Origin: a virus
Length of the DNA stretch: 64,000 nt
IMG/VR virus record: IMGVR_UViG_3300046660_000367
Span: 34,276 to 98,275 of that record
Reading direction: 5' to 3' (one strand)
Positions within the stretch are counted from its first letter, which is position 1, and each line of letters opens with the position of its first letter. A program made the position numbers and the translations under genes. The notes below the pieces were generated by a model. The model was given only the letters and a program-made list of their open reading frames with translations. It was not told the origin of the DNA and ran no database searches. This document shows positions 2,677 through 53,314 of the stretch, piece by piece.

Positions 2677-2915
2677 GGTGCGCTTTCATCCCTATTCGCT
2701 AAGGCGACAGGCACGCCGCCGCGTGTTTTCGTCCCCCACGGCGCGCGCGGCTTCGCTTCAAGGTCGGCCATGGTCATGCCGGCGTCCTGCATCAGGGCCA
2801 GTATCTGCTGGGTGGCCTGGGTGCGCGCCATCCGTTGGGCGTCCAGCGCTTCTTCCTCCAGCCGGCTGATCTCGGCGCGCAGTTTGCGGTAGTGGGCAAG
2901 GTAATCGATTTCCAT
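2673..2915 (-). CDS. H-NS N-terminal (oligomerisation) domain-only protein
   Basis: YRKLRAEISRLEEEA...QILALMQDAGMTMADL; no TWxGxGR DNA-binding domain. Confidence 0.6.
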   Translation of the reverse strand: MEIDYLAHYRKLRAEISRLEEEALDAQRMARTQATQQILALMQDAGMTMADLEAKPRAPWGTKTRGGVPVALANRDESAP

Positions 2916-3006
2916 TTTTGTTTCCTTCGGTTAGTGTGGTTTGTGTAGATGCTGCGTCGCCCCGTAGCAGTTTGACGCGCGCCATGGGGTCAGAATAGTG
3001 ACTCAT

Positions 3007-3255
3007 TTAGTGTTTGGCGGCGTGCCGTTGCCGCAGCTTATCGAGCTTGCCCGAGGACACCTCGAATCCGTCGCCGAAGGCGCTCAGGTATTGTTGGAAC
3101 GTCGCCTCATCGGGTAGGTTATTGTGCACAATCTGGCTGATGGCCAGCCCGCCAGCGATGTAGCCGAATACATGCATCGAATCTAGCGGGGGCAGCTCCA
3201 AGTGTTTCGCCAGTTCGGCAATCGCGCGCAGGAAGGCCGCTTGTTTCTCGTTCAT
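3007..3255 (-). CDS. hypothetical protein
   Basis: MNEKQAAF start with SD, coupled to neighbouring genes. Confidence 0.55.
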   Translation of the reverse strand: MNEKQAAFLRAIAELAKHLELPPLDSMHVFGYIAGGLAISQIVHNNLPDEATFQQYLSAFGDGFEVSSGKLDKLRQRHAAKH

Positions 3256-3584
3256 GGCAGCGTCCTTTGTATGGTTTCCCACAGCGCACACGCGGCTTGC
3301 GCGGCCTGGCGCCGGGACATGCCGGGCGGGTCTTCTTCGGTGCCGCCGAAGCAGCTGCAGCGCCGCAGCTGGTGGCCAACTGAACCGATCACGCCGCGCA
3401 TGCGGCACTCGTAATGGGTCACCTGGTCGGCACCATCGATGGTGCCGATGTCGCCCTCGGCGATCGCTTCCCCGCACAGCAGGCAGGCCTGCCCAATCGG
3501 CGGTGCGACCTGGCGTTCGTAGTCCTTCATCATGTGGGCCGGGCCGAAGAAGCCGATGGCGAAAGGGAAATCGTCGTCGCTCAT
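3252..3584 (-). CDS. hypothetical Cys/His-rich protein
   Basis: CLLC...HYEC...CSC motifs, coupled ORF. Confidence 0.55.
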   Translation of the reverse strand: MSDDDFPFAIGFFGPAHMMKDYERQVAPPIGQACLLCGEAIAEGDIGTIDGADQVTHYECRMRGVIGSVGHQLRRCSCFGGTEEDPPGMSRRQAAQAACALWETIQRTLP

Positions 3585-8455: not shown

Positions 8456-8908
8456 TTATTTCTTTTCAGAAGGTTTGTAGTGTTCGGCCAGCAACTTATC
8501 GATGAAGTCGAACAGGCACGCTTCCACCAACTTCTGGTGTGATTTCATGCGCGGCACGTTGTCCACGATCCACTTCATCTTGGCGTGGGTGACGCCGTCG
8601 AACTTGAGGTTGACGTGCTTGGCGACCTTGCGGTCGGCGTGCTGCCACGGCGGCACGTGCGGCTTCTCCTTGGCCGCTGGCGCGACCTCGGCCGCCTGCG
8701 GTGTGGCTGGCTTTGCCGCCTTCTTGCGTGCCGCTGGCTTGGCCGGCATCGCAGCTGGCGTCTCCGGGGGGGCGACGGGGGCTGCTGGCGGCAACTCGGC
8801 GGCTGCGATGAACTGGTCTTCGGCAGCCTGGCGCGCAGCGGTCGTACCGGCGATCGGCAGCGGCTGGCGAAACTTCTTCACGGCCACGGTCTTTGCCGGC
8901 GCGGTCAT
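8456..8908 (-). CDS. ParA partner / centromere-binding protein (type Ib, RHH-like C-terminus)
   Basis: directly downstream of parA; disordered Ala/Pro N-terminus then PPW...VNLKFD...KMKWI. Confidence 0.6.
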   Translation of the reverse strand: MTAPAKTVAVKKFRQPLPIAGTTAARQAAEDQFIAAAELPPAAPVAPPETPAAMPAKPAARKKAAKPATPQAAEVAPAAKEKPHVPPWQHADRKVAKHVNLKFDGVTHAKMKWIVDNVPRMKSHQKLVEACLFDFIDKLLAEHYKPSEKK

Positions 8909-9573
8909 GATGCCACCCGCTCGTCTACCCACACTTCGGCTGCCAGCGCCGCCATTTCTGCCACGGCCTTGTCGTCGGTTTCGGCGCGCGGGTACTCGCT
9001 GGTGGCGCGGCCGTCGCGGGCGCAGCGGCGGTAGGCCTTGCGCGAATGGACTTCGGTGGCCAGGATCGTGTAGTTCTGCATGTCGGCCAGCGCTTCACGC
9101 ATTTCCGCCACGTCCTGCTGCTGGGCGTTGGTGGGGGCGCAGTTGACCAGCAACACGGCGGCGAGGCCTTCGTTGATGGTGCGCACCTCGCCCACCAGCC
9201 TATCCATGGTGAAGGTCGAGAAGATATCGAACTGCGACGGTTCGCAGGGCGTGACGATCAGGTCCGCTACCATCATCGCGGCGCGCAGCTCGATCGAGTC
9301 CTGGCCACCGGCGTCGATGACGATGTGGTCGTATTTGTCCTTGAGGGCGCGCACTTCCTCCTTGAGCGACTTGCCGCGCAGGCCGATGCAGGTGATCGCC
9401 GGCAGAATGCCTTCCTCGCGCCGCGCTGCCGCCCATTGCTGCGCCGATCCCTGCTTGTCGGTGTCGATCAGCAGCACGTCCTTGCCCTGAGCCGCGCACG
9501 ATACCACCAGGTTGACCGCGATCGTGCTTTTGCCGACCCCGCCCTTTTCCGCTCCTACCACGACGATTGCCAT
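8905..9573 (-). CDS. parA: ParA family partition ATPase (short type Ib)
   Basis: deviant Walker A EKGGVGKST, LLIDTDKQGS, IVIDAGG, PCEPSQFD; no N-terminal HTH. Confidence 0.92.
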   Translation of the reverse strand: MAIVVVGAEKGGVGKSTIAVNLVVSCAAQGKDVLLIDTDKQGSAQQWAAARREEGILPAITCIGLRGKSLKEEVRALKDKYDHIVIDAGGQDSIELRAAMMVADLIVTPCEPSQFDIFSTFTMDRLVGEVRTINEGLAAVLLVNCAPTNAQQQDVAEMREALADMQNYTILATEVHSRKAYRRCARDGRATSEYPRAETDDKAVAEMAALAAEVWVDERVAS

Positions 9574-9599
9574 ACCGCCCCCTTGTTTAATGTGATGAC

Positions 9600-10065
9600 A
9601 AAAAGGAAGTATCTCATACGAATATGTGCAATGCAATGCTAATCATACAAATGTCGATCTGTATTGATAGGCATTAATCCACATAAGATAGGTTAAATTA
9701 GATTAATAGCAATTAAGTTAATGCTGAATACAATAAGTCACAGTTAATCGGCATTAATCTCATTAATGCCGATGAATATCATTTTAAATAAATTGGACCG
9801 ATATAAGACAACATAATTTTAATTAGCATTGCATTTATTGCATTAGTTTAATGTAAGTCTAATTTAATTGGTGCTGATCTATAGTAAACAACATAAGCTA
9901 ACATTATGCACTCCAACATAAATGTAATTGGTGTTGATAAGCACTAATTAGATTAAATTTAATTTGTGCAAATTTGATCAAAGTTAATCAGTGCTGATTA
10001 CAATTGCACAAACTTATACTTGTATGTGCAACTTTGTGCTATTTTGTGCAAAAAGTTGCACTAAT
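9600..10065. promoter_or_regulatory. very AT-rich non-coding tract with about 10-bp periodic TAA/TTAA motifs; candidate centromere and par promoter
   Basis: gcattaatcc acataagata ggttaaatta gattaatagc aattaagtta ... continuing for more than 300 bp upstream of parA. Confidence 0.6.
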
Positions 10066-15212: not shown

Positions 15213-15857
15213 TCAGGCGAAGGTACTCTGCGCCACGATCACCCGGCCGAGGACCGGCGGCAGCTGGTCCGGCTGGTAGGTTTCGGGCGCTGTCGCCGGC
15301 TGGTCGGTGCGCAACTCGATGCTGCCGTCGGCGCGCATGAACACGCGCCGCACCAGCAGGCCGTGGGCCGTTTGGAACACGTAGATTTTTGACGACACCA
15401 GCGTCTTGTCGGCGGCATGGACGAGCAGCTGGTTTCCCAAGGACATGCTGCTGTCATTGGAGATAACGACCACGCAGTCGCTTGCGCGAGCGCCCAGGTC
15501 GGTCAGCAAATCCTTGCGATACGCATACGTATCCTTGCCGTCAAGGTGATCGACGACCTCATCATGGTAGTTCACGGTGGGACCCTTTTTGAACGCCTCT
15601 GCATACCGGGGTATGAAGGCATATTTATCGTTGGGGTCCACGTTAGCACTAATTCCAAGGGTCAAGTATTCGACCGTCGTTTTTAATGCGTCGGCGACTT
15701 TTTTTGTGAGGTGGCGGCGTGGCGCTGTGCCTTTTTGGTCTTCCGGCAGCTCCCACAGCAGCACCGTTTGACGCGAGACACCGACCGTGTCGGCCAACTC
15801 CTGGGGCGACAGCTTGAGTTCCAAGCGGCGCTCTTTAATTCTCGAATGTATGTCCAT
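15213..15857 (-). CDS. cI: CI-like repressor (XRE HTH plus degenerate S24 domain)
   Basis: RIKERRLELKLSPQELADTVGVSRQTVLLWE; C-terminal DSSM...LLV...YVF...LLVRRV; divergent from a cro-like gene. Confidence 0.85.
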   Translation of the reverse strand: MDIHSRIKERRLELKLSPQELADTVGVSRQTVLLWELPEDQKGTAPRRHLTKKVADALKTTVEYLTLGISANVDPNDKYAFIPRYAEAFKKGPTVNYHDEVVDHLDGKDTYAYRKDLLTDLGARASDCVVVISNDSSMSLGNQLLVHAADKTLVSSKIYVFQTAHGLLVRRVFMRADGSIELRTDQPATAPETYQPDQLPPVLGRVIVAQSTFA

Positions 15858-39870: not shown

Positions 39871-39980
39871 GTAGACCTCCATTCGCTGATTGTGCGGGGC
39901 ACATGCACCCGCTAGGTGCAGTATAGACACGCACCCGCAGAGTGCAAGGACAAACACCACTTGCAACACTGGACCACACG

Positions 39981-41597
39981 ATGCTGACACTACCCACTGA
40001 AATCCGCGCCGCGCTGCAGGCCGCGCCGTTCGCCAGGGTGGCCGACTTGTGGGAGTTGGTCGAACGCCAGTACGGCATGCCTGGCAAGGCCTGGCTGGGG
40101 AGGAATGATCGGTTCTACTTGCTGACGCGCCTGCTGCACCGGCTTGATGCGGTGCATCCGTGGCTGTACGCGCGCTGCCGCGAGCTGGAAGCGGCCCCGG
40201 ATGGGCACCTGGACCTCTGGGCGCGCGAGCATTACAAGTCAACCCTTGGGACGTTCGCTGGCATCATCCAGGAGCTACTGATTAACCCTGAGTGCACCAT
40301 CGGGATTTTCAGCCACACCAAGCCGGTCGCCCGCAAGTTCCTACTCCAGATCAAGCAGGAGCTGGAAGCGAACAGGGAGCTGCAAGAGACCTACCCGGAC
40401 GTGCTGTACGCCGACCCGCGCAACGAGTCGTCCAAGTGGTCCGAAGAAAAAGGGATCGTGGTACGCCGCCGCAGCAACCCAAAAGAGGCGTCAGTCGAAG
40501 CACATGGGCTGGTGGATGGCCAGCCAACCGGGGCGCACTTCATGCTGCGCGTATATGACGACGTTGTCACCCGCGAGTCCGTCAGCACGCCGGACCAAGT
40601 GAGCAAGACCACCAGTGCATGGGAGCTGTCCGACAATCTGGGCGCACGCGGCGAGGACGGCAAGACGCGCGCATGGCATTTTGGGACCCGCTACAGTTTT
40701 GCCGACAGCTACAACGACATTCTGGAGCGCGGCGCGCTGATTCCGCGCCTGTTCGCCGCCACCCACAACGGCATGCCCGATGGAGTGCCGGTATTCCTGA
40801 CGCCCGAAGCGTGGGCCGCGAAGAAGCTGGTGCAGGGACCAGCGACGATAGCGTGCCAACAACTGCAAAATCCCGCCGCTGGCAATGAGGCTATGTTCCG
40901 CAAGGAGTGGTTGAGCTTCATCGACATCAGGCCCGCAACCCTGAACGTCTACATCATGGTGGACCCGGCCCACAGCAAAAAGAAGGGATCGGACAACACG
41001 GCGATGGCCGTTGTCGGCATCGACAGCGGCGGCAACAAGTACCTGCTGGACGGCTACCGCCACAAGATGGGCCTACGCGAGCGCTGGGAAGCCCTGCGCG
41101 GCCTGCGCAAGGTGTGGCTCGCACAACCGGGCGTGCAGATGGTGCGCGTCGGATATGAGCGTTACGGGATGCAAGCGGACCTTGAGTATTTCGAGGAACA
41201 GATGCAGCGTGACAAAGACGCATTCGAGATCGCGGAGTTGAACTGGACCAGCGACGGTGCGCAGGCCAAGGACGACAGGGTGCAGCGTTTGCAGCCCGAC
41301 TTCATGGCGCACAAGTTCTTCCTGGCTGCGGTGACGCAGACGGAGACCAGCAACCAACGCCGCATCCGCGAGCAGGGGCAGGCCTTCCGCATCTTCAAGC
41401 CAGTCAGCCGCAGAGATCACGAGGGCAACGTGTATTCGTTGAACAAGGGGTTCCTGGAAGAATTCCTCACGTATCCCTTCAGCGCCAAGAAGGACCTGAT
41501 CGACGCGGTGAGCCGCATCCATGACATGGAGCCGGTGCCGCCAACCCTGATCGACGAACGGATGCTGGAGCCGGAGACCTACGCCGACGGCATGTAA
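39981..41597 (+). CDS. terL: terminase large subunit
   Basis: AREHYKST (Walker A variant), YDDVV (Walker B), GTRY, nuclease VDPA...SD.TA, KDLIDA. Confidence 0.9.
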   Translation: MLTLPTEIRAALQAAPFARVADLWELVERQYGMPGKAWLGRNDRFYLLTRLLHRLDAVHPWLYARCRELEAAPDGHLDLWAREHYKSTLGTFAGIIQELLINPECTIGIFSHTKPVARKFLLQIKQELEANRELQETYPDVLYADPRNESSKWSEEKGIVVRRRSNPKEASVEAHGLVDGQPTGAHFMLRVYDDVVTRESVSTPDQVSKTTSAWELSDNLGARGEDGKTRAWHFGTRYSFADSYNDILERGALIPRLFAATHNGMPDGVPVFLTPEAWAAKKLVQGPATIACQQLQNPAAGNEAMFRKEWLSFIDIRPATLNVYIMVDPAHSKKKGSDNTAMAVVGIDSGGNKYLLDGYRHKMGLRERWEALRGLRKVWLAQPGVQMVRVGYERYGMQADLEYFEEQMQRDKDAFEIAELNWTSDGAQAKDDRVQRLQPDFMAHKFFLAAVTQTETSNQRRIREQGQAFRIFKPVSRRDHEGNVYSLNKGFLEEFLTYPFSAKKDLIDAVSRIHDMEPVPPTLIDERMLEPETYADGM

Positions 41598-43072: not shown

Positions 43073-43429
43073 ATGACACGACTGCTCAACGGCCTGGACG
43101 AAACGGCTGTCACCACCGCCAACGACCACATCATGGCCAAGACCATGGCCGATGCGCTGGTGGCGCACTATCCCGCGCCGCACTTGTGGGCGGTGTCGGC
43201 TGACTCCAAGACCGGGCTGTGCATCATCCGCAACCTGCTGCTGTCGGGGAACATGGGCTTTGTCCTCAAGATTCCCGATATCTACAGCGCCAGTGCGTTC
43301 AAGGCCGATGTGATCCGTGCGGGCGGCGAACTGCTGGAGCGCTACCGCCTGAACGTTGGCCGCTTCAACGAGCAGCAGTACGCGGACCTTAAAACCGACT
43401 TCAAGGGCGAATTCACATTCGACACATGA
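43073..43429 (+). CDS. conserved phage hypothetical protein
   Basis: L..HYP..HLWAV...GGELLERYRL. Confidence 0.65.
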   Translation: MTRLLNGLDETAVTTANDHIMAKTMADALVAHYPAPHLWAVSADSKTGLCIIRNLLLSGNMGFVLKIPDIYSASAFKADVIRAGGELLERYRLNVGRFNEQQYADLKTDFKGEFTFDT

Positions 43430-46400
43430 TGACCACTTCCCCTCCCGACTGGCTGACGCTGGCACGCGATGCCTACACCGCGTCCACGTCCTACTTTGAC
43501 GCTTCGATCCGGCAGCAGATCGAGGCCGACTTGCGCCAGTCGCAGGGGCAGCACCCGGTCGGCTCCAAGTACCTGGCCGACAAGAGCCGGTCGCGCCTGT
43601 TCCGGCCCAAGACGCGCGCCACGATCCGCAAGAATGAAGCGGTGGCCGCCGAAGCCTTCTTTTCGACCAAGGACGTGGTGCAAATCGGCGCGGAGAACGA
43701 CAACGATCCGGTGCAGCAGGCCAGCGCCGCCATGATGTTCGAGCTGCTGCAGTACCGCCTGACCAAGAGCATTCCATGGTTCCTGACCTTGGTGGGCGCG
43801 TACCAGGATGCGCAGACAGTGGGTGTCGTCGCCAGTTACCAGTATTGGGAATACAACGAAAAGAAGAAGCTGGACCGCCCGCAAGTGCGCCTGATCCCGA
43901 TTGAAAACCTACGTTTTGACCCTGGCGCTTCCTGGACCGATCCGGTCGGCACCAGCCCCTATTTGGTCGAGCTGATCCCGATGTACCTGGGCGAGGTCAA
44001 GGCGCGCATGAACACGCCGGACCCGAAGACCGGCGAGGCCAAGTGGAACCTGCTGCCAGACGCCGTCATCATGTCGGCCACCAAGAGCTACGGCGACACC
44101 ATCCGCATGCAGCGCGAAGGCCAGCGCATGGACAGCAAGAGCCAGCAGCAGGCCAACAACGCATTTAACATCGTGTGGGTACATAAAAACATCGTCAGCG
44201 TGGACGACGAGGACTACGTGTACTACACGCTCGGCTGCGAACACCTATTGAGCGAGCCAGTGCCGCTGGACCAGCGCTACTTCCACGGCAAGCGGCCTTA
44301 CGTCATCGGCTCCTGCGTCATCGAGACGCACAAGAACTATCCGTCGTCGGTGCCGCGATTGACACGCGACGTGCAGGCCGAGATCAACGAGGTGGCCAAC
44401 CAGAGGATAGACAACGTCAAGCTGGCGATGAACAAGCGCTACTTCGCACGACGCAACAAACAGGTCGATATCCGCAGCGTCACGCGCAACGTGCCGGGCA
44501 GCGTAACACTGATGCAGGACGTGGACGACGTGAAGGTGGTCGAGTTCAACGACGTGACCGGCAGCAGCTACAAAGAACAGGAAGTTCTCAATCTGGACTT
44601 TGACGACATGGCGGGCGCGTTCTCCGGTTCGTCAGTGCAGTCGAACAGGAAGCTAAATGAAACCGTCGGCGGCATGAAGCTGCTGGACACCAACGCCAAT
44701 CAGGTCAGCGGCTACCAGCTACGCACCTTTGTGGAAACCTGGGTCGAGCCGGTGCTGCGCCAGATCGTGCTGCTAGAACAGTATTACGAGACCGACGAAA
44801 CGCTGGTGGCCTTGTGCGGCGACGCGGCGCAGCTGGCGCAGAAGTTCGGCATCGATCAAGTCACCGACGACATGCTGATGCAGGAATTCAGCTTGAACGT
44901 GAATGTCGGCATGGGCGCGACCAACCCGCAGGACCAAGTGAAACAGTTCATTAGCGGCATGACGGCGCTGCGCGACATGCTGGCCGACGGTTCCCTGATG
45001 AAGCTGGGCCTGAAAGTCGAGGAAGTCATCAAGGAATTGTTCGGCAAGCTGGGCTACAAGGACGGCGGGCGTTTCTTCGACATGAAAAACGAGGACCCGC
45101 AGCTGAAACAGATGCAGGCCACCATCGACCAGCTGCAACAGGCGCTGGACGCCAAGATGGACCCGAAGATCATCGACGCCACGGTGCGCAAGATCGACGC
45201 CGAGATCGCCAGCATGGGCGTCAAGGACAAGGTGCAGAACGCGAACGCGGTCAAGCAGGGCACCGAGGCCCAATTCAGCGCCATGCAGACCGCCGAAGTC
45301 ATCGCCGCCGTGCCTGCTGTCGCACCGATTGCCGACGAGCTGATGCGCGCCGCAGGCTATACGCCACCCACACCGGCAGGCGTGGACCCGAATTTCCCGC
45401 AACCGGGGATCGCCGACCCGAACCTGGGCATCAAGGACGTACAGAACAAGCGCACCGGCATCGGCTTCATGCCGGGCGATGGCAGCGCACCGCCACCGCT
45501 ACCCCCGCCGTCAACCACCTTGCGCCCCGCAGGACCGGCGACACCGGGCGTGGGCGAGCGCCAGGGCATCGAGACCACGCGGCCCGACTCGATTGCGCAA
45601 GCGGCGTTTGCTGACGGCGGCATGATCCGCCCGACCCAGTTCAGCGGCACAGGGGATTACATCAATACCCTGCAAAAGGGCGGCGACTTCATCAACTCCG
45701 ATGGCGAGACGGACAACTTGAACCACTACACCGCAGCGCTGTCGGCGATGGGGCTGGCCCCGAACGCGATCAACAACAGCCCGCTGGCTGATGGGCTGGC
45801 CAATTCCACGTTCAACACCGGAGACATGGATGCCAACAGCGGCATTCAAAGCATGCTGGACGAATCGGCCTTCAACACCGGGCGCCTGGCTGATGGCGGC
45901 CTGATTGGCGACGCGCTCAACAGTTACGATAACTGGTCGCAGAACCACCCAGCCGCCAAGCTGGCCCTTGACGTGCTGCCGGTGACGAATGTCGTCACCT
46001 CGGCCATGGACGTGGCCAACGATCTGCACAAGGGCGAGTATTGGACCGCTGCCGGTGATGCGCTGGGCCTGATCCCCGGCTTCAAGCTGGCCAAGACGGC
46101 GGTCATGCCAAGCAAGATCGCACAAGTGGCCGCACTGGCGTCACAGTACCGCCGCCCGATTGACGCGGCGGTCAATGCGGTGCCTGAGTACATCAGCAAA
46201 CTGCAGCCGCAGCAACATCAATTAGCACTACCGTCATCGCCAACAGACGCATCACCCTACGCCTCCTATGCCGACGGCGGCCTGATCGCCGGGCCGGGCA
46301 GCGGCACCTCTGACTCAATTGCGGCGGTCGCCAATGGCCAGCCGCTGGCCGTGTCCAACGGCGAGTACCACATTCCCGCCGCTGTCGTGTCGGCGCTGGG

Positions 46401-46590
46401 GCGCGACTTCTTCGACAAGCTGGTCGAGCAGTTCCACCAGCCGACTGACGGCACGCACGCGCCAATGCCGGCCAGTGCCGACCCGCTCGCCATGGAGCAG
46501 GGTGACTTCATTGTGCCAGCCGATGTCGTGCAGGCACTGGGCGCCGACTTCTTCGACCATCTGGTGAAACTGTACGGCGGTGCGCAATGA
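43426..46590 (+). CDS. portal protein (podovirus-like) with about 330-aa C-terminal extension
   Basis: RSRLFRPKTR, ENLRFDP, Q.EINE..NQR.DNV, ETVGGM, TFVETWVEP; position after terL. Confidence 0.85.
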   Translation: MMTTSPPDWLTLARDAYTASTSYFDASIRQQIEADLRQSQGQHPVGSKYLADKSRSRLFRPKTRATIRKNEAVAAEAFFSTKDVVQIGAENDNDPVQQASAAMMFELLQYRLTKSIPWFLTLVGAYQDAQTVGVVASYQYWEYNEKKKLDRPQVRLIPIENLRFDPGASWTDPVGTSPYLVELIPMYLGEVKARMNTPDPKTGEAKWNLLPDAVIMSATKSYGDTIRMQREGQRMDSKSQQQANNAFNIVWVHKNIVSVDDEDYVYYTLGCEHLLSEPVPLDQRYFHGKRPYVIGSCVIETHKNYPSSVPRLTRDVQAEINEVANQRIDNVKLAMNKRYFARRNKQVDIRSVTRNVPGSVTLMQDVDDVKVVEFNDVTGSSYKEQEVLNLDFDDMAGAFSGSSVQSNRKLNETVGGMKLLDTNANQVSGYQLRTFVETWVEPVLRQIVLLEQYYETDETLVALCGDAAQLAQKFGIDQVTDDMLMQEFSLNVNVGMGATNPQDQVKQFISGMTALRDMLADGSLMKLGLKVEEVIKELFGKLGYKDGGRFFDMKNEDPQLKQMQATIDQLQQALDAKMDPKIIDATVRKIDAEIASMGVKDKVQNANAVKQGTEAQFSAMQTAEVIAAVPAVAPIADELMRAAGYTPPTPAGVDPNFPQPGIADPNLGIKDVQNKRTGIGFMPGDGSAPPPLPPPSTTLRPAGPATPGVGERQGIETTRPDSIAQAAFADGGMIRPTQFSGTGDYINTLQKGGDFINSDGETDNLNHYTAALSAMGLAPNAINNSPLADGLANSTFNTGDMDANSGIQSMLDESAFNTGRLADGGLIGDALNSYDNWSQNHPAAKLALDVLPVTNVVTSAMDVANDLHKGEYWTAAGDALGLIPGFKLAKTAVMPSKIAQVAALASQYRRPIDAAVNAVPEYISKLQPQQHQLALPSSPTDASPYASYADGGLIAGPGSGTSDSIAAVANGQPLAVSNGEYHIPAAVVSALGRDFFDKLVEQFHQPTDGTHAPMPASADPLAMEQGDFIVPADVVQALGADFFDHLVKLYGGAQ

Positions 46591-47764: not shown

Positions 47765-47875
47765 TTCGTTCCTGCCCGCTGCCGCTGGTCCCGTGCCAGT
47801 CGCGCAAGACAGGGATTTCTCTGCCCGCACGCCGACCTGGCCATGCGGGCTTTTTCATATCAGGAGCATCACACC

Positions 47876-48922
47876 ATGGCAGACAGCGCTATCCAATCGG
47901 ACGTGCCAGCACCCGCAGCAGCAGCAACCGCAGCAACCGACACCACCGAAGTACAGAAATCGTCCCGCGAGCTGGCCATGGAGGCGCTGGAAAACCGCCA
48001 CCAGCAACAGATGGCCGAAGCGAACGGCTACGAACTGCCGGTCGAGGAAGAACCGGCGCCAGTGATCGCTGCCGCACCGGCTGACCAGCTGGCCGCGCAG
48101 CTGGCCGACCCGCCCGCCGCAGCCGCCGCCGAAGTGCCCAACACCGTGCGCGTCAAGGTCGATGGCGTCGAGACCGACGTGCCGCTCGATGAAGTGGTGC
48201 GCCAGTACCAGAAGAACAGCAGCGCCGACAAGCGCCTGACCGAAGCCACGCGCCTGTTGCGCGAAGCCCAGGAAGCGCAGGCCCAGCGCCTGCTGATCGA
48301 GCAGCAGGAAGCCCAGCTGCGCGCCCAGCAAGCCAACACCGCCACACCCGACAACGCCACGACCGACAACCAGCCGGTTGACGAGTCCGGCAAAGAATTT
48401 CTCAAGGCCCTGTTTGAGGGCGACGAGGAAAACGCGCTCACCGCGCTGCAAAAGGTCATTGGAGGACGGCAGCAGACCGCTACGGCGGCTACGCCCACCC
48501 TCGACATCGACCAGATTGCCAACGCGGTGACGCAGCAAGTGCAGCAGAAGTTCGCAGTTGAGAGTGCATTAGCGCAGAACCAGCGCGACTATCCCGAGCT
48601 GTACAGCGACCCCGATATGGAGGCCCTGGCCCTGACCAAAATCCAACGCCTGCGCGAGCAGAGCGGCAGCGACTTTTTCACTGCACTGGATGCCGTCAGC
48701 AAGGACATGGCAACCAAATTCGGCTGGGCCGCGAGTGCCGCACCGGGACGTCAGGCCGATCCTGCCACAACCACGTCCTCCGCCCGAACGGCAAAGCTGG
48801 AGCAAAAACGCTCGATCGACAACGTCGCTTCGATCAACACCAAAACCACCACCACCGAACAGCAGCCCGAAAACCCCAGCGATGTTATCGCTGCGATGAA
48901 GGCCGCGCGTGCCGGGGGATAG
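47876..48922 (+). CDS. capsid scaffolding protein
   Basis: acidic/Ala-rich; VKVDGVE..V.LDE....YQK...AD.RL.EA; immediately upstream of the capsid gene. Confidence 0.8.
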   Translation: MADSAIQSDVPAPAAAATAATDTTEVQKSSRELAMEALENRHQQQMAEANGYELPVEEEPAPVIAAAPADQLAAQLADPPAAAAAEVPNTVRVKVDGVETDVPLDEVVRQYQKNSSADKRLTEATRLLREAQEAQAQRLLIEQQEAQLRAQQANTATPDNATTDNQPVDESGKEFLKALFEGDEENALTALQKVIGGRQQTATAATPTLDIDQIANAVTQQVQQKFAVESALAQNQRDYPELYSDPDMEALALTKIQRLREQSGSDFFTALDAVSKDMATKFGWAASAAPGRQADPATTTSSARTAKLEQKRSIDNVASINTKTTTTEQQPENPSDVIAAMKAARAGG

Positions 48923-48957
48923 GTGGATTCCATCTTTCTCTTTTAGGAGTACATATC

Positions 48958-50401
48958 ATGGCAGGTCAAGTCTGGCTCACCAACAGCCTGGGTAAATAAC
49001 ACTGCCCCGTCACCGAGTAATCGGCGACTGATAATTGCGTGAATTGCAGGGAACTCTGACCGCGTTAGGGCGCAGACAATCTGCAGCCAAGCCGGCACAA
49101 GCCGGAAGGTTCAACGACTATCCCGTAGGTGGGAGTAGGGGCAAGCGCCCCAAAGTGCGCAACGTCCCAAGGGACGATGAAATAGTCTGATCTTGTCAGA
49201 AATGGCAAGCAGCCGGAGTGGGAACCGGCGAGCAGCGAGTAGCGACCTCTGCTGAACAAAATGGGTTATATGTGGTCACCCAACCTCTCGAAAGTTTTGC
49301 GTATGGCCGTCCAGCCACTCACAAAATTCCGCCAATTTGCTGATATCAAGGACGCAGCTGTCCAGGGTAAAGGCATGGGCGACGCATTCCATTAACGACC
49401 TGGTGGAATTAAAACCGACTCTGATTGACTTCAACCCCCGGCAGCGGGAAAGAAGGGGCAAGCAAGCCGCAAGGCTGTGCAGCCTGAGAGACTAAGCGAG
49501 TTGGCCCCGGCAACGGGGATGCGATAGTCCGACCACGGCATATAACATCATGAACGCCGTGAGGTGGCAGAAATGACCACCCGCCTGTCAATGCAGCGAC
49601 AGGTTATCAAGTAACAGTGTGTGGAACGTTTACAGCGATGTAGCGACCCAAGGCACGACGCTCACGGAAGGCACCGCGATGCCAACCACGAACTTCGTGA
49701 TTACCCAGGGCACCATGACCATCACCGAGGCGGGCAATTCTGTGCCTTACTCCTCGAAATTGGACGACCTCTCGGAACAGCCGGTCAAGGAGATCATCAG
49801 CAAGGTCCTGAAGAACGACGCCAAAAAAGCGTTCGACATCATGGCCGAGGCGCAGTTCAAGCTCACGCCGCTGCGTGTCGTGCCAACCGGCGGCACCTCC
49901 ACCAGCGCCGTGACGCTGACCACCAACGGCACTGCGACGGCGACGAACAATGTGGCAATGGGCAAAAACCATGTGAAGGCCATCGTGGACGTGATGAAGG
50001 AACGCAATATCCCTCCATACGTGCAGGATGACTACATCAGCCTGGCCCACCCAACCACGTTCCGCCAGTTGAAGAACGACCTGGAAGCGGTCCACCAGTA
50101 CGTGGACGCCGGTTTCCAGATGATCCTCAACGGCGAGATCGGCCGCTACGAGTCGGTGCGCTTTGTCGAGCAAACCAACATCGCCAAGGCCGCGTTTGTA
50201 AACGGCCTGTCGAACTGGGCCTACTTCTTCGGCAACGACACCGTGGCCGAGGGCATTGTGATTCCCGAGGAGATGCGCGGGATGATCCCTGGCGACTACG
50301 GTCGCCAGCGCGGTGTGGCCTGGTACTACATGGGAGGTTTCGGCCTGGTTCAGACCGCCGCTGCGCAATCGCGCATCATCCGCTGGGATTCGGCCGCGTA
50401 A
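48958..50401 (+). CDS. major capsid protein (N4-gp56-like, HK97 fold), spliced: join(48958..48993,49264..49392,49622..50401), 314 aa
   Basis: AGGAG SD at 48945; joined frame MAGQVWLTNSLG|GYMWSPNLSKVLRMAVQPLTKFRQFADIKDAAVQGKGMGDAFH|WNVYSDVATQG...GEIGRYESVRFVE...DYGRQRGVAWY. Confidence 0.9.
48994..49263 (+). ncRNA. group I intron 1 (270 nt, IA2-like, no ORF)
   Basis: exon ends in U, intron ends in G; P AAUUGCAGGGAA 49042, Q AAUCUGCAGCC 49078, R GUUCAACGACUAU 49109, S AAAUAGUC about 49180; P3 UUGCGU/GCGCAA; P7.1, P7.2, P8 and P9-9.2 hairpins. Confidence 0.92.
49393..49621 (+). ncRNA. group I intron 2 (229 nt, compact, no P2/P7.1, no ORF)
   Basis: P1 AUUCCAU/GUGGAAU with U-G at the splice site; P3 CCGACUC/GAGUUGG; R CCUGAGAGACUAAG 49483; S GCGAUAGUCC 49521; P8 CCCCG-GCAA-CGGGG; terminal G. 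Confidence 0.92.
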
Positions 50402-50422: not shown

Positions 50423-50454
50423 GAAAGGCCCGCTTTCGAGCGGGTCTTTTTTTT
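50423..50454 (+). terminator. intrinsic terminator after the capsid gene
   Basis: GGCCCGCT-TTCG-AGCGGGTC plus T8. Confidence 0.85.
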
Positions 50455-50459
50455 CACCC

Positions 50460-51168: not shown

Positions 51169-51438
51169 ATGTCCGACTCGAACTACAAACCCGACGGCAC
51201 CGGCGTCGTCATGGGCGATCGCAAGCCGATGCCCGACAAAGGTACGTCCACCGGCATGACCGGCTACGACACCCACAACGAAATGAGCCTGGACCAGGAC
51301 GCCACCAACACCATCGGCAAGATCACCGGCGCGACCAAGAGCGACCCGATGGACGAGTGCTACGCCGACGATCCGACCTTCGGCCCGGCCAAGGGCGATG
51401 CCGAGGAAGACGCGGCCGACGACAAGGCAGCCTACTGA
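51169..51438 (+). CDS. hypothetical acidic protein
   Basis: AAGGAG SD. Confidence 0.6.
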   Translation: MSDSNYKPDGTGVVMGDRKPMPDKGTSTGMTGYDTHNEMSLDQDATNTIGKITGATKSDPMDECYADDPTFGPAKGDAEEDAADDKAAY

Positions 51439-51683
51439 TGGCCGGCCCGACCTTCGACCGCAAGCGCCCGTTCGGCACCATTTCGGGCGACGAGTTCGGC
51501 CGCACGTACGAACAGGACCACCAGTTCTTCCTGGCCGACGGCAGCCTGTGGATTGCGCCGGAACCCGCGCCGGTGCCGGAAGTGCTGCCAGCCGAGGCAA
51601 CAAAGCCCGCGCCGAAAAAGGCCAAGGCCGCCGAACCGCTGGCACAGGACGCCCAGCTCGACGCACAGCTGGGTGCCGCGTGA
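51438..51683 (+). CDS. hypothetical protein
   Basis: FDRKRPFGTISG....YEQD...F.ADG. Confidence 0.6.
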   Translation: MAGPTFDRKRPFGTISGDEFGRTYEQDHQFFLADGSLWIAPEPAPVPEVLPAEATKPAPKKAKAAEPLAQDAQLDAQLGAA

Positions 51684-53314
51684 TCTGGCGCGTTGACGAC
51701 CCGCAGGGCGATGAAGCCAGCAAAGTGAAATTCGAGATCGTGCAATACACGCGCGGTCTCGGCCTGGACATCGGCTGCGGCCCGCATAAGGCATTCCCGC
51801 ATTTCATCGGTGTCGATAGCAAGAAGGACACCGAGTTGTTCGGTATCGACATGGCGCCGGACAACGTGGTCGAGGACGCGGCGCAGCTGCCGCAGGTCCC
51901 GACCGGCAAACTCGATTTCGTCTTTTCCTCGCATTTGCTGGAACACATCGAGGACTACCAGGGCGCGCTGCGCGAGTGGTGGCGCACCATCAAGGTGGGC
52001 GGGCACATGGTCCTGTACCTGCCGCACCGCGACCTGTACCCGAACGTCGGCCAGCCCGGCGCGAACCCGGACCACAAGCATGACTTCGCGCCGCAGGACA
52101 TCATCGACGCCATGACGGAGATCACGCGCGAGGTCGGCAACGCCTGCGATGTGCTGGTCAACGAGACACGCGGCGAGCGCATGGAATACTCGTTCCTGCT
52201 GGTGCTGCGCAAGATCGAGCGCGACGAGAACGATACCAGCTTGCACAGCTACCTGACGCCGCGCCCCACCAAGACAGCGTGTATCTCCCGCTTCGGCGGC
52301 TTCGGCGACATGATCATGGCTTCCGCCCTGCTGCCGGAACTGAAAGCGCAGGGCTACCACATCACCTTCAACACCACCCCCAGCGGGCAGGATATCCTGG
52401 CCCACGACCCGCACATCGACGACTGGCTGATCGTGGACCCGGACCAGGTGCCGAACCACCAGCTGCCGCTGTTTTGGCAAGCCATCGCGCGCCGCTACAG
52501 CAAGTTCATCCAGCTGTCCGAGTCCATCGAAGGCACCTTCCTGGCCATGCCGGGCCGCGCCAACCACGCCTGGCCGCATGCGGTGCGCCACATGGAGCTG
52601 AACCGCAACTACCTGGAATGGTGCGCCGAGCTGGCCGAACTGCCGTACCGCTCCGACGCCAAGTTCTACCCCAGCCTGTACGAGCAGGGCATCGCGGCCG
52701 GCTACCTGACCGGCATCCGCCTGTCGCGTGCACCCAAGGACCTGATGATCGGCGTGCCGACCCCGGACTGCTTTTTCATCGTGTGGGCGCTGGCCGGGTC
52801 ATCGATGCACAAGTTCTACCCGCACATGGACGCGGTGATCGCCAAGGTGCTGCTCGAACTTCCCGAGGCCGTCATCATCTTCACCGGCGACATGGCCTGC
52901 CAGATTCTGGAAGCGGGCTGGGAACTGGAGCCGCGCGTGTACCGCGAGTCGGGCAAGCAGAGCATACGTGAAACCCTTACCCTGGCCACCATGGCCGATT
53001 GCGTGGTGGGGCCGGAAACCGGCGTGCTGAATGCGGTCGCCTTCGAGGACAAGGTGGCCAAAGTGGCGCTGCTGTCGCATTCGTCCATCGAGAACCTGAC
53101 CAAGCACTGGCTCAATACCGCAAGCCTGGCGGCGCCGTTCAACCCGGACAACACGGTCTGCAACGACCAGGCCTGCCACCGCCTGCACTACGGCAGCGCC
53201 TTTTGTGTCGAGGACCTTGATACCGGCGCCTCGTCCTGCCAGAGCCACATCGCGCCGTCGCGCGTGTTCGACGCCATCAAGGCCGCCTACGCGGCGTGGA
53301 AGGAGCCGAAATGA
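51680..53314 (+). CDS. class I SAM methyltransferase fused to GT9-like glycosyltransferase
   Basis: GLDIGCG, DFVFSSHLLEH, W.RTIKVGG; RFGGFGDMIMAS.LL..LK and ADCVVGPETGVLNAVA (GT-B/GT9). Confidence 0.85.
   Translation: MIWRVDDPQGDEASKVKFEIVQYTRGLGLDIGCGPHKAFPHFIGVDSKKDTELFGIDMAPDNVVEDAAQLPQVPTGKLDFVFSSHLLEHIEDYQGALREWWRTIKVGGHMVLYLPHRDLYPNVGQPGANPDHKHDFAPQDIIDAMTEITREVGNACDVLVNETRGERMEYSFLLVLRKIERDENDTSLHSYLTPRPTKTACISRFGGFGDMIMASALLPELKAQGYHITFNTTPSGQDILAHDPHIDDWLIVDPDQVPNHQLPLFWQAIARRYSKFIQLSESIEGTFLAMPGRANHAWPHAVRHMELNRNYLEWCAELAELPYRSDAKFYPSLYEQGIAAGYLTGIRLSRAPKDLMIGVPTPDCFFIVWALAGSSMHKFYPHMDAVIAKVLLELPEAVIIFTGDMACQILEAGWELEPRVYRESGKQSIRETLTLATMADCVVGPETGVLNAVAFEDKVAKVALLSHSSIENLTKHWLNTASLAAPFNPDNTVCNDQACHRLHYGSAFCVEDLDTGASSCQSHIAPSRVFDAIKAAYAAWKEPK

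Follow-up and report, generated by a model that had tools for sequence, protein, structure and literature searches.

Group I introns have been reported in the virion genes of several phages. The capsid gene of mycobacteriophage LittleE contains a group I intron with a LAGLIDADG-like open reading frame (ORF), and its splicing was proven by reverse transcription-PCR and by N-terminal sequencing of the protein across the junction (Pope et al., 2013, PMC3706429). A related ORF-less intron is present in a tail gene of phage BAKA (BAKA/Optimus), and the same paper cites a capsid-gene intron in lactococcal phage Tuc2009 (PMC3706429). According to a summary of work on crAss-like phages, members of the Delta and Zeta groups harbor group I introns in capsid, PolB, and primase genes, and one capsid gene contains three of them (PMC10136315). 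Three introns within a single gene have also been described in Staphylococcus phage Twort (Landthaler and Shub, 1999, as quoted in a citing paper). Here, we report on the major capsid gene located in a 64-kb window (the whole stretch of 64,000 nucleotides that was analyzed), which is the right-hand part of the complete 98,275-bp IMG/VR virus record IMGVR_UViG_3300046660_000367. We conclude with high confidence that this gene is split by two ORF-less group I introns, which belong to unrelated lineages and are selfish mobile elements.

The window resembles LittleE and BAKA, which are temperate phages whose structural genes carry probable group I introns, with a U as the last exon base and a G as the last intron base. 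LittleE and BAKA also provide an intron with a LAGLIDADG-like ORF and a related intron devoid of it, with a patchy distribution among close relatives. LittleE has a single intron, of proven splicing, in the HK97-like capsid gene of an actinobacteriophage, whereas the window combines two intron lineages in an N4-gp56-family capsid gene of a proteobacterial-type phage, and splicing is deduced from the sequence. The crAss-like phages share with the window the presence of several group I introns in one capsid gene, detected by comparative genomics of metagenomes, but they belong to another phage order and another capsid family. Twort, as portrayed in the citing paper, is similar in having one gene with several small ORF-less group I introns, and differs in being a Gram-positive myovirus in which the interrupted gene is orf142. 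A preliminary description of the window had started from the premise that the classic phage group I introns reside in genes for nucleotide metabolism or replication. This premise is out of date, since capsid-gene introns have been published (PMC3706429; PMC10136315), and the introns of the window are a further case of this class.

Organization of the split capsid gene

A homolog search performed with the large ORF located downstream from the inserts identified thousands of proteins, many of the closest being exactly 314 residues long. In JGI and NCBI, close homologs bear the name 'N4-gp56 family major capsid protein'. The third exon matched PHROG 1357 'major head protein' (E = 1e-16). For family TIGR04387 (cut-off of 60 bits), the score was 54.2 bits for exon 3 alone and 61.7 bits for P0004, an uninterrupted full-length homolog of 314 residues that is 97% identical to the capsid protein of the window. 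P0004 was used as a tblastn query on the window, which returned exactly three colinear pieces (48958-48993, 49264-49392, and 49622-50398). Removal of 48994-49263 (270 nt) and 49393-49621 (229 nt) restores a single 314-residue frame, as deduced from the colinearity of these pieces with the uninterrupted homolog. The gene is organized as follows.

48945-48949, plus strand: Shine-Dalgarno sequence AGGAG of the capsid ATG at 48958, read from the sequence
48958-48993, plus strand: capsid exon 1, residues 1-12 (MAGQVWLTNSLG), last base U, 12/12 residues identical to P0004
48994-49263, plus strand: intron 1 (type A), ORF-less group I intron, 270 nt, identified with Rfam RF00028
49264-49392, plus strand: capsid exon 2, residues 13-55, last codon CAU, last base U, 42/43 residues identical to P0004
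49393-49621, plus strand: intron 2 (type B), probable ORF-less group I intron, 229 nt, identified with a covariance model and by covariation
49622-50401, plus strand: capsid exon 3, residues 56-314 and TAA stop codon, 250/259 residues identical to P0004

The ATG at 48958 opens 12 capsid codons followed by AAA and TAA, in agreement with the 13 codons of the preliminary description, which had also proposed the 314-residue frame borne out by tblastn. Both inserts are located at codon boundaries, and the distance between them is 129 nt. The junctions that had been predicted, CTGGGT/GGTTAT and TTCCAT/TGGAAC, agree with the alignment to the uninterrupted homolog. No Shine-Dalgarno sequence comparable to that of exon 1 was found ahead of two other potential start codons, GTG (49619) and ATG (49261). 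At the sequence level, the observation of a capsid gene split by two inserts is thus exact and confirmed. The inserts had been described as ORF-less, and they contain only short frames (36 to 64 residues), which were rejected as genes as none had a Pfam match.

Group I features of the two inserts

Intron 1 matched the Rfam group I intron model RF00028 with a score of 72.6 bits (E = 1.8e-16; curated threshold, 50 bits). The match (48984-49209) covered the full model (model positions 1-253), and homologous type A copies in related contigs scored 51 to 77 bits. In the Rfam alignment, the P1 helix includes the pair U48993·G49004 at the splice site, and P7 is formed by GACUA (49116-49120) and UAGUC (49183-49187), as had been proposed. 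P7 covaries among type A copies (GACUA with UAGUC, GAUCA with UGAUC, and GACCA with UGGUC). The terminal G of the intron, G49263, directly precedes exon 2, and the combination of an exon-final U paired to G in P1 with an intron-final G is conserved in each of the six type A copies. Compared with the Rfam model, intron 1 has an extra 33 nt, able to fold into two hairpins (approximately 49121-49151), that separate P7 from the 3' strand of P3. Introns of subgroup IA carry P7.1 and P7.2 at exactly this place, and the Twort ribozymes are of the IA2-like subgroup. Based on the position of the two extra hairpins, and under these classification rules, intron 1 may belong to subgroup IA. The P10 pairing that had been noticed for this intron (AUAAC with exon GUUAU) exists in the window. 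It was given little weight as evidence because it is not conserved in the closest intron-bearing relative, L011, in which the exon reads GAUAC. Single-sequence folding of the two inserts, in which the pseudoknot is not representable, yielded modest z-scores (-2.5 and -3.0) and was used as a starting point only.

The preliminary description had proposed a search with group I models and had regarded the lack of a match as a refutation. The search supported intron 1, as reported above, and left intron 2 below the Rfam level: no match to RF00028 was found at E ≤ 10 in searches of 801 nt or 266 nt, and a search of intron 2 alone with lax filters returned noise matches only (12 to 13 bits). Reading this outcome as a refutation is wrong for intron 2, which would be mistakenly rejected because the Rfam model is blind to the type B lineage. 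Indeed, none of 29 type B copies from 20 loci was detected by Rfam at the gathering threshold. We built a type B covariance model from four ORF-less copies and the proposed structure. With this model, numerous relatives of full length were identified in viral contigs unrelated to the window. The predicted helices of intron 2 are the following.

49386-49392 with 49403-49409: P1, U·G pair at the splice site
49415-49421 with 49498-49504: P3
49429-49432 with 49452-49455: P4
49437-49439 with 49446-49448: P5
49456-49459 with 49482-49485: P6
49462-49468 with 49473-49480: P6a
49490-49494 with 49525-49529: P7
49505-49509 with 49514-49518: P8
49534-49539 with 49556-49561: P9
49563-49567 with 49577-49581: P9.1
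49584-49589 with 49598-49603: P9.2

The P3, P7, P8, and P9 helices of the preliminary description are therefore present, and the P3/P7 pseudoknot is backed by covariation. In an alignment of 13 sequences, which was fitted with the model and leans toward the given structure, 96.9% of the cells of the 59 pairs were paired, versus 69.0% after shuffling (a value equal to that observed being reached in 0 of 500 trials) and 36-47% after sliding the structure, a large margin. Changes on both sides of the pair were found for 48 of the 59 pairs, and RNAalifold applied to the type B alignment independently yielded the same helices. The internal guide of intron 2 pairs AUUCCAU with GUGGAAU, and guides track the insertion sites: UUCCAU is matched by GUGGAA at the site following residue 55, and UUCCGU by GCGGAA at the site following residue 35. 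The pair located at the splice site in P1 is U·G in 9 of the 13 aligned copies. The 1-nt ambiguity of the junction (T/T) was settled by the terminal-G rule, which assigns the last position of the intron to G49621. Thus, both inserts follow an exonic U, end with G, and display a U·G pair in P1 at the splice site, as had been claimed.

Comparison of type B introns with RF00028 revealed the same overall order of helices and the same core motifs at J6/7-P7 and J8/7-P7 (AGACUAAG and GAUAGUC). Type B introns differ in the J3/4-P4-P5 region, in the absence of P2, and in a conserved extra 3' hairpin (GGYGGCAGAAAUGACCRCC). Three relatives containing the 3' domain of intron 2 are Rfam-positive (L093, 68 bits; L105, 67 bits; L116, 65 bits). 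In each of them, the Rfam match stops just upstream (5') of the conserved hairpin, and the type B covariance model also matches these elements. Intron 2 might need a protein cofactor because P5 is limited to 3 bp and P2 is absent. On the whole, we consider it very probable that both inserts are group I introns.

Selection on the exons, distribution, and mobility

Comparison of exon 3 from the window and L011, each of which harbors both introns, revealed 49 synonymous and 6 non-synonymous differences. For exons 1 and 2 together, synonymous and non-synonymous differences numbered 6 and 0 versus L011, 19 and 2 versus L030, and 26 and 0 versus L010. The exons are thus under purifying selection, even between intron-bearing genomes. 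The differences being almost wholly synonymous, the small upstream exons appear to be translated as part of the capsid protein, and we infer from this selection that splicing of both introns occurs. Splicing is presumably efficient. An in-frame stop codon was found 0 to 8 codons past every 5' splice site examined, including one located 1 codon past that of intron 1 and a UAA immediately past that of intron 2. Such an arrangement, by which the ribozyme is kept free of ribosomes, has been described for group I introns of bacteria (PMC3984707).

The following scheme may be proposed. The late transcript would carry both ribozymes, and ribosomes initiating at 48958 would stop 1 codon past the 5' splice site of intron 1 or immediately past that of intron 2, leaving the ribozyme cores free to fold. 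Each internal guide would pair with the last 6 to 7 exon bases, with a U·G wobble at the cleavage site, and each intron would be excised by two guanosine-initiated transesterifications ending at its terminal G. The ligated message would then be translated into the 314-residue capsid protein.

Approximately 80 of 89 related capsid loci (about 90%) are uninterrupted. One of them, L010, is devoid of introns and yet displays 98% amino acid identity with the window over exon 3. Interrupted relatives carry one, two, or three introns, which occupy four sites, two for each lineage.

Site after residue 12: type A, in the window, L011, L017, and L030
Site after residue 293: type A, in L030 and L033
Site after residue 35: type B, in L017, L032, and L080
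Site after residue 55: type B, in the window, L011, L030, and L033

Both type A sites contain YUGGGU/GG and both type B sites contain UUCCRU upstream from the splice site. A hexamer common to the two sites of each lineage is what is predicted for spread to a second site directed by the guide sequence. The last exon base was U at all 13 occupied sites examined, versus 19-47% of 68 distinct intron-less alleles. Homologs of 300 residues were considered as carriers of intron 1 and rejected: the one checked, P0021 (a 300-residue call apparently from the same contig as L013), is uninterrupted, and Met15 was taken as its start by the gene caller.

Conservation is higher in the introns than in the exons. 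Between the window and L011, a separate metagenome contig with the same two-intron architecture, identity was 97.8% and 98.7% for the introns and 91.0% for exon 3. Between the window and L030, it was 91.8% for the type B intron and 80.1% for exon 3. The type B sites of L033, L032, and L080 are occupied by longer type B versions (720-770 nt) that retain P1, P3, P7, P8, and P9 and contain an ORF of approximately 200 residues, with the sequence WLAGIIDGEG invariant in the three copies. In size and in the presence of one LAGLIDADG-like motif, these ORFs resemble single-motif LAGLIDADG endonucleases of the I-CreI type. The Pfam LAGLIDADG_3 score was 18.8 bits (cut-off of 22.5 bits), and a PDB sequence search with these ORFs returned no match. 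A low-confidence AlphaFold model of one of them (pLDDT of 60) had I-CreI as its top Foldseek match (E = 7e-6), the best fold matches being I-CreI, I-CvuI, and I-MsoI. The PHROGs label for this ORF family is 'HNH endonuclease'. Based on the motif, the sub-threshold Pfam score, and the modeled fold, we regard these proteins as candidate LAGLIDADG homing endonucleases. In contrast to these relatives, whose ORFs score below the Pfam threshold, the introns of the window encode no endonuclease of this type.

The patchy distribution of the introns, the relatives bearing putative endonucleases, and the higher conservation of introns than of exons are the signature of selfish mobile elements. The introns of the window may have arrived by homing from endonuclease-bearing relatives or by guide-directed insertion at look-alike sites, and the endonuclease gene may have been lost later or may never have been there.

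Type B introns are not exclusive to this capsid family. A 23-nt probe from the 3' hairpin identified 28 viral stretches, at least 21 of them in capsid genes. A second probe, from the 5' core, identified at least 120 stretches, and the type B model confirmed 69 matches (E < 1e-10) among the 79 new loci listed. Among the matches listed for this probe, approximately 29 of 50 flanking ORFs encode head proteins, belonging to PHROG 283 (17), 1357 (8), 9953 (3), and 1328 (1), and the other host genes encode tape measure, ribonucleotide reductase, portal, and endolysin proteins. With a further copy in an exonuclease gene, these hosts led us to reject the idea that the lineage is restricted to capsid genes. 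Type B introns were enriched in phage capsid genes, an observation that needs an unbiased census since both probes were derived from the capsid intron and their origin could bias the enrichment. An annotated phage collection contained no close relative of the capsid protein and only short matches to the intron core.

Type B copies often occur in groups of two to five per gene, and five IMG/VR contigs contain three to five of them within 1.3-2.6 kb.

L110, 1986-3303: clustered type B introns
L116, 1-2638, minus strand: clustered type B introns
L134, 799-2390: clustered type B introns
L169, 2274-4513: clustered type B introns
L193, 5968-7742: clustered type B introns

Where checked, the genes hosting these clusters encode major head proteins (PHROG 1357 or 283), and they are far more heavily infested than that of the window. 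A tentative reading, to which we give somewhat less than an even chance, is that intron 2 represents a large Rfam-invisible clade of compact group I introns that favors capsid genes and spreads by guide-directed insertion at look-alike hexamers. Its preference, stated with the same reserve, would be for the major capsid genes of unrelated families and, to a lesser extent, for further structural genes expressed late. Reverse splicing into very abundant late mRNAs would be one possible route to new sites, second sites in one gene included. If such spread were true, capsid genes with two to five introns would be its outcome.

Genomic context, alternative explanations, and annotation

The 98,275-bp record is a complete genome with direct terminal repeats, in which the two introns of the capsid gene are the only group I introns. 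The capsid gene belongs to a head-morphogenesis block, and virion proteins are encoded downstream from it. The following features of the window complete this picture.

8905-9636, minus strand: ParA/MinD-type ATPase (AAA_31, E = 6e-19)
15213-15857, minus strand: CI-like repressor (HTH_3 and Peptidase_S24)
39942-41597: large terminase, head-morphogenesis block
43426-46590, plus strand: portal ORF, 1054 residues, head-morphogenesis block
47843-48922: ORF of 359 residues upstream from the capsid gene, no family match
50430-50455, plus strand: probable intrinsic terminator (stem CCCGCU with AGCGGG, and a T run), identified by eye only

The portal ORF matches a portal family at approximately residues 285-617 and a tape-measure family at residues 905-1001, such a long C-terminal extension being unusual for a portal protein. 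Shortly downstream from the capsid region, an ORF of 638 residues (51398-53314, plus strand) had no PHROG match at E ≤ 1e-5.

The preliminary description had proposed that the two ribozymes form a regulatory device gating capsid synthesis, acting as a timing or metabolic (guanosine or energy-state) checkpoint or as a leak-proof off switch in the plasmid-prophage state. Capsid production is indeed anatomically dependent on two splicing steps, a temperate and possibly plasmid-borne lifestyle is suggested by the CI-like repressor and ParA-like ATPase of the phage, and the split gene has persisted under selection, as revealed by the exons. These features have to be set against the absence of introns in relatives with near-identical capsids (L010, and about 90% of the loci) and the presence in other relatives of one to three introns at varying sites. 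The same lineages carry putative homing endonucleases and invade many unrelated genes, which encode portal and tape-measure proteins, ribonucleotide reductase, and capsid proteins of several families. No sensor or riboswitch-like addition is visible, and a search of a plasmid collection with the capsid protein found no homolog, which provides no support for the plasmid-prophage part of the proposal. A checkpoint or off switch is not supported, in view of the preponderance of intron-free relatives, the endonuclease-bearing relatives at the same sites, and the conservation of introns in excess of that of exons, and we consider such a role very unlikely.

The introns, or their endonuclease-bearing parents, might instead persist through an advantage in mixed infections, in which the intron-less capsid alleles of co-infecting relatives would be targeted and the ORF-less copies would provide immunity to cleavage. 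A published study reports that phages infecting one cell can interfere with each other through an intron-encoded endonuclease (PMC11620839). The target sequence is destroyed once a site is occupied, and versions with and without the putative endonuclease ORF occur at the same sites of this capsid family, with introns more conserved than exons. The introns of the window encode no endonuclease, which would limit their contribution to passive protection at most, and purely selfish homing with later loss of the endonuclease gene would produce this pattern just as well, leaving the notion of a competitive weapon or marker unlikely. Even less probable, to the point of being nearly negligible, is that one or both inserts no longer splice and that the gene is a pseudogene, part of a defective phage, or an assembly artefact. 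The lack of an Rfam match for intron 2 would fit this scenario, against which stand the purifying selection seen in each of the three exons when independent intron-bearing genomes are compared, the maintenance of ribozyme helices by compensatory changes, the recurrence of the two-intron architecture in the separate contig L011, and the completeness of the genome with its terminal repeats.

Our conclusion that the capsid gene harbors two selfish group I introns of unrelated lineages also has to be weighed against points that speak less in its favor: the failure of intron 2 to match RF00028, its 3-bp P5 and missing P2, the lean of the model-fitted alignment toward the given structure, and the weakness of the endonuclease assignment, with its sub-threshold Pfam score and low-confidence fold. 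In addition, the conservation of introns beyond that of exons could partly reflect structural constraint rather than recent transfer.

Intron-bearing genes are misread in public sets. Truncated capsid proteins of 260 and 280 residues are present (P0003, P0019, P0024, P0060, and P0071), and the two truncated forms checked on the DNA start at the last codon of the type B intron, which was mistaken for an initiation codon: GTG/TGG at residue 55 (ORF at 49619 of the window) and TTG/CAG at residue 35 (ORF at 2938 of L032). These truncated proteins are gene-calling artefacts of intron-bearing alleles. In GenBank entry MW202674 ('Podoviridae sp. ctn9Y15'; L121, 2185-3700), a P22-type coat gene is listed as two coding sequences because of a type B intron (2469-2709, 111 bits with the type B model), to which Rfam is blind and inside which a 39-residue 'hypothetical protein' is annotated.

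Two side observations concern other records. Xanthomonas phage CP1 (AB720063) contains a group I intron recognized by Rfam (L120, 2262-2603, 64.3 bits) and not annotated in the record, which overlaps ORF40 (614-2332, 'DNA polymerase lacking N-terminal exonuclease') at its 3' end and extends into the gap before ORF39 (2692-3399), so that the polymerase gene is probably split by the intron. L105, a viral contig in which an exonuclease-like gene carries a type B intron, contains an Rfam match to transfer-messenger RNA (tmRNA) of 59 nt only (8844-8902, minus strand; 55.6 bits, threshold of 47), which may be a partial remnant of a tmRNA attachment site.

The window thus offers a case of selfish introns in a highly expressed and conserved phage gene, which leaves the view of capsid-synthesis regulation unchanged. 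The practical value of the finding is in annotation, as gene callers turn intron-bearing capsid genes into truncated proteins, and a dedicated type B covariance model would allow many capsid, tape-measure, and ribonucleotide-reductase genes now split in viral metagenomes to be repaired. With four sites and two lineages, with and without a putative endonuclease gene, this capsid family provides a compact natural system for the spread of introns to new sites.

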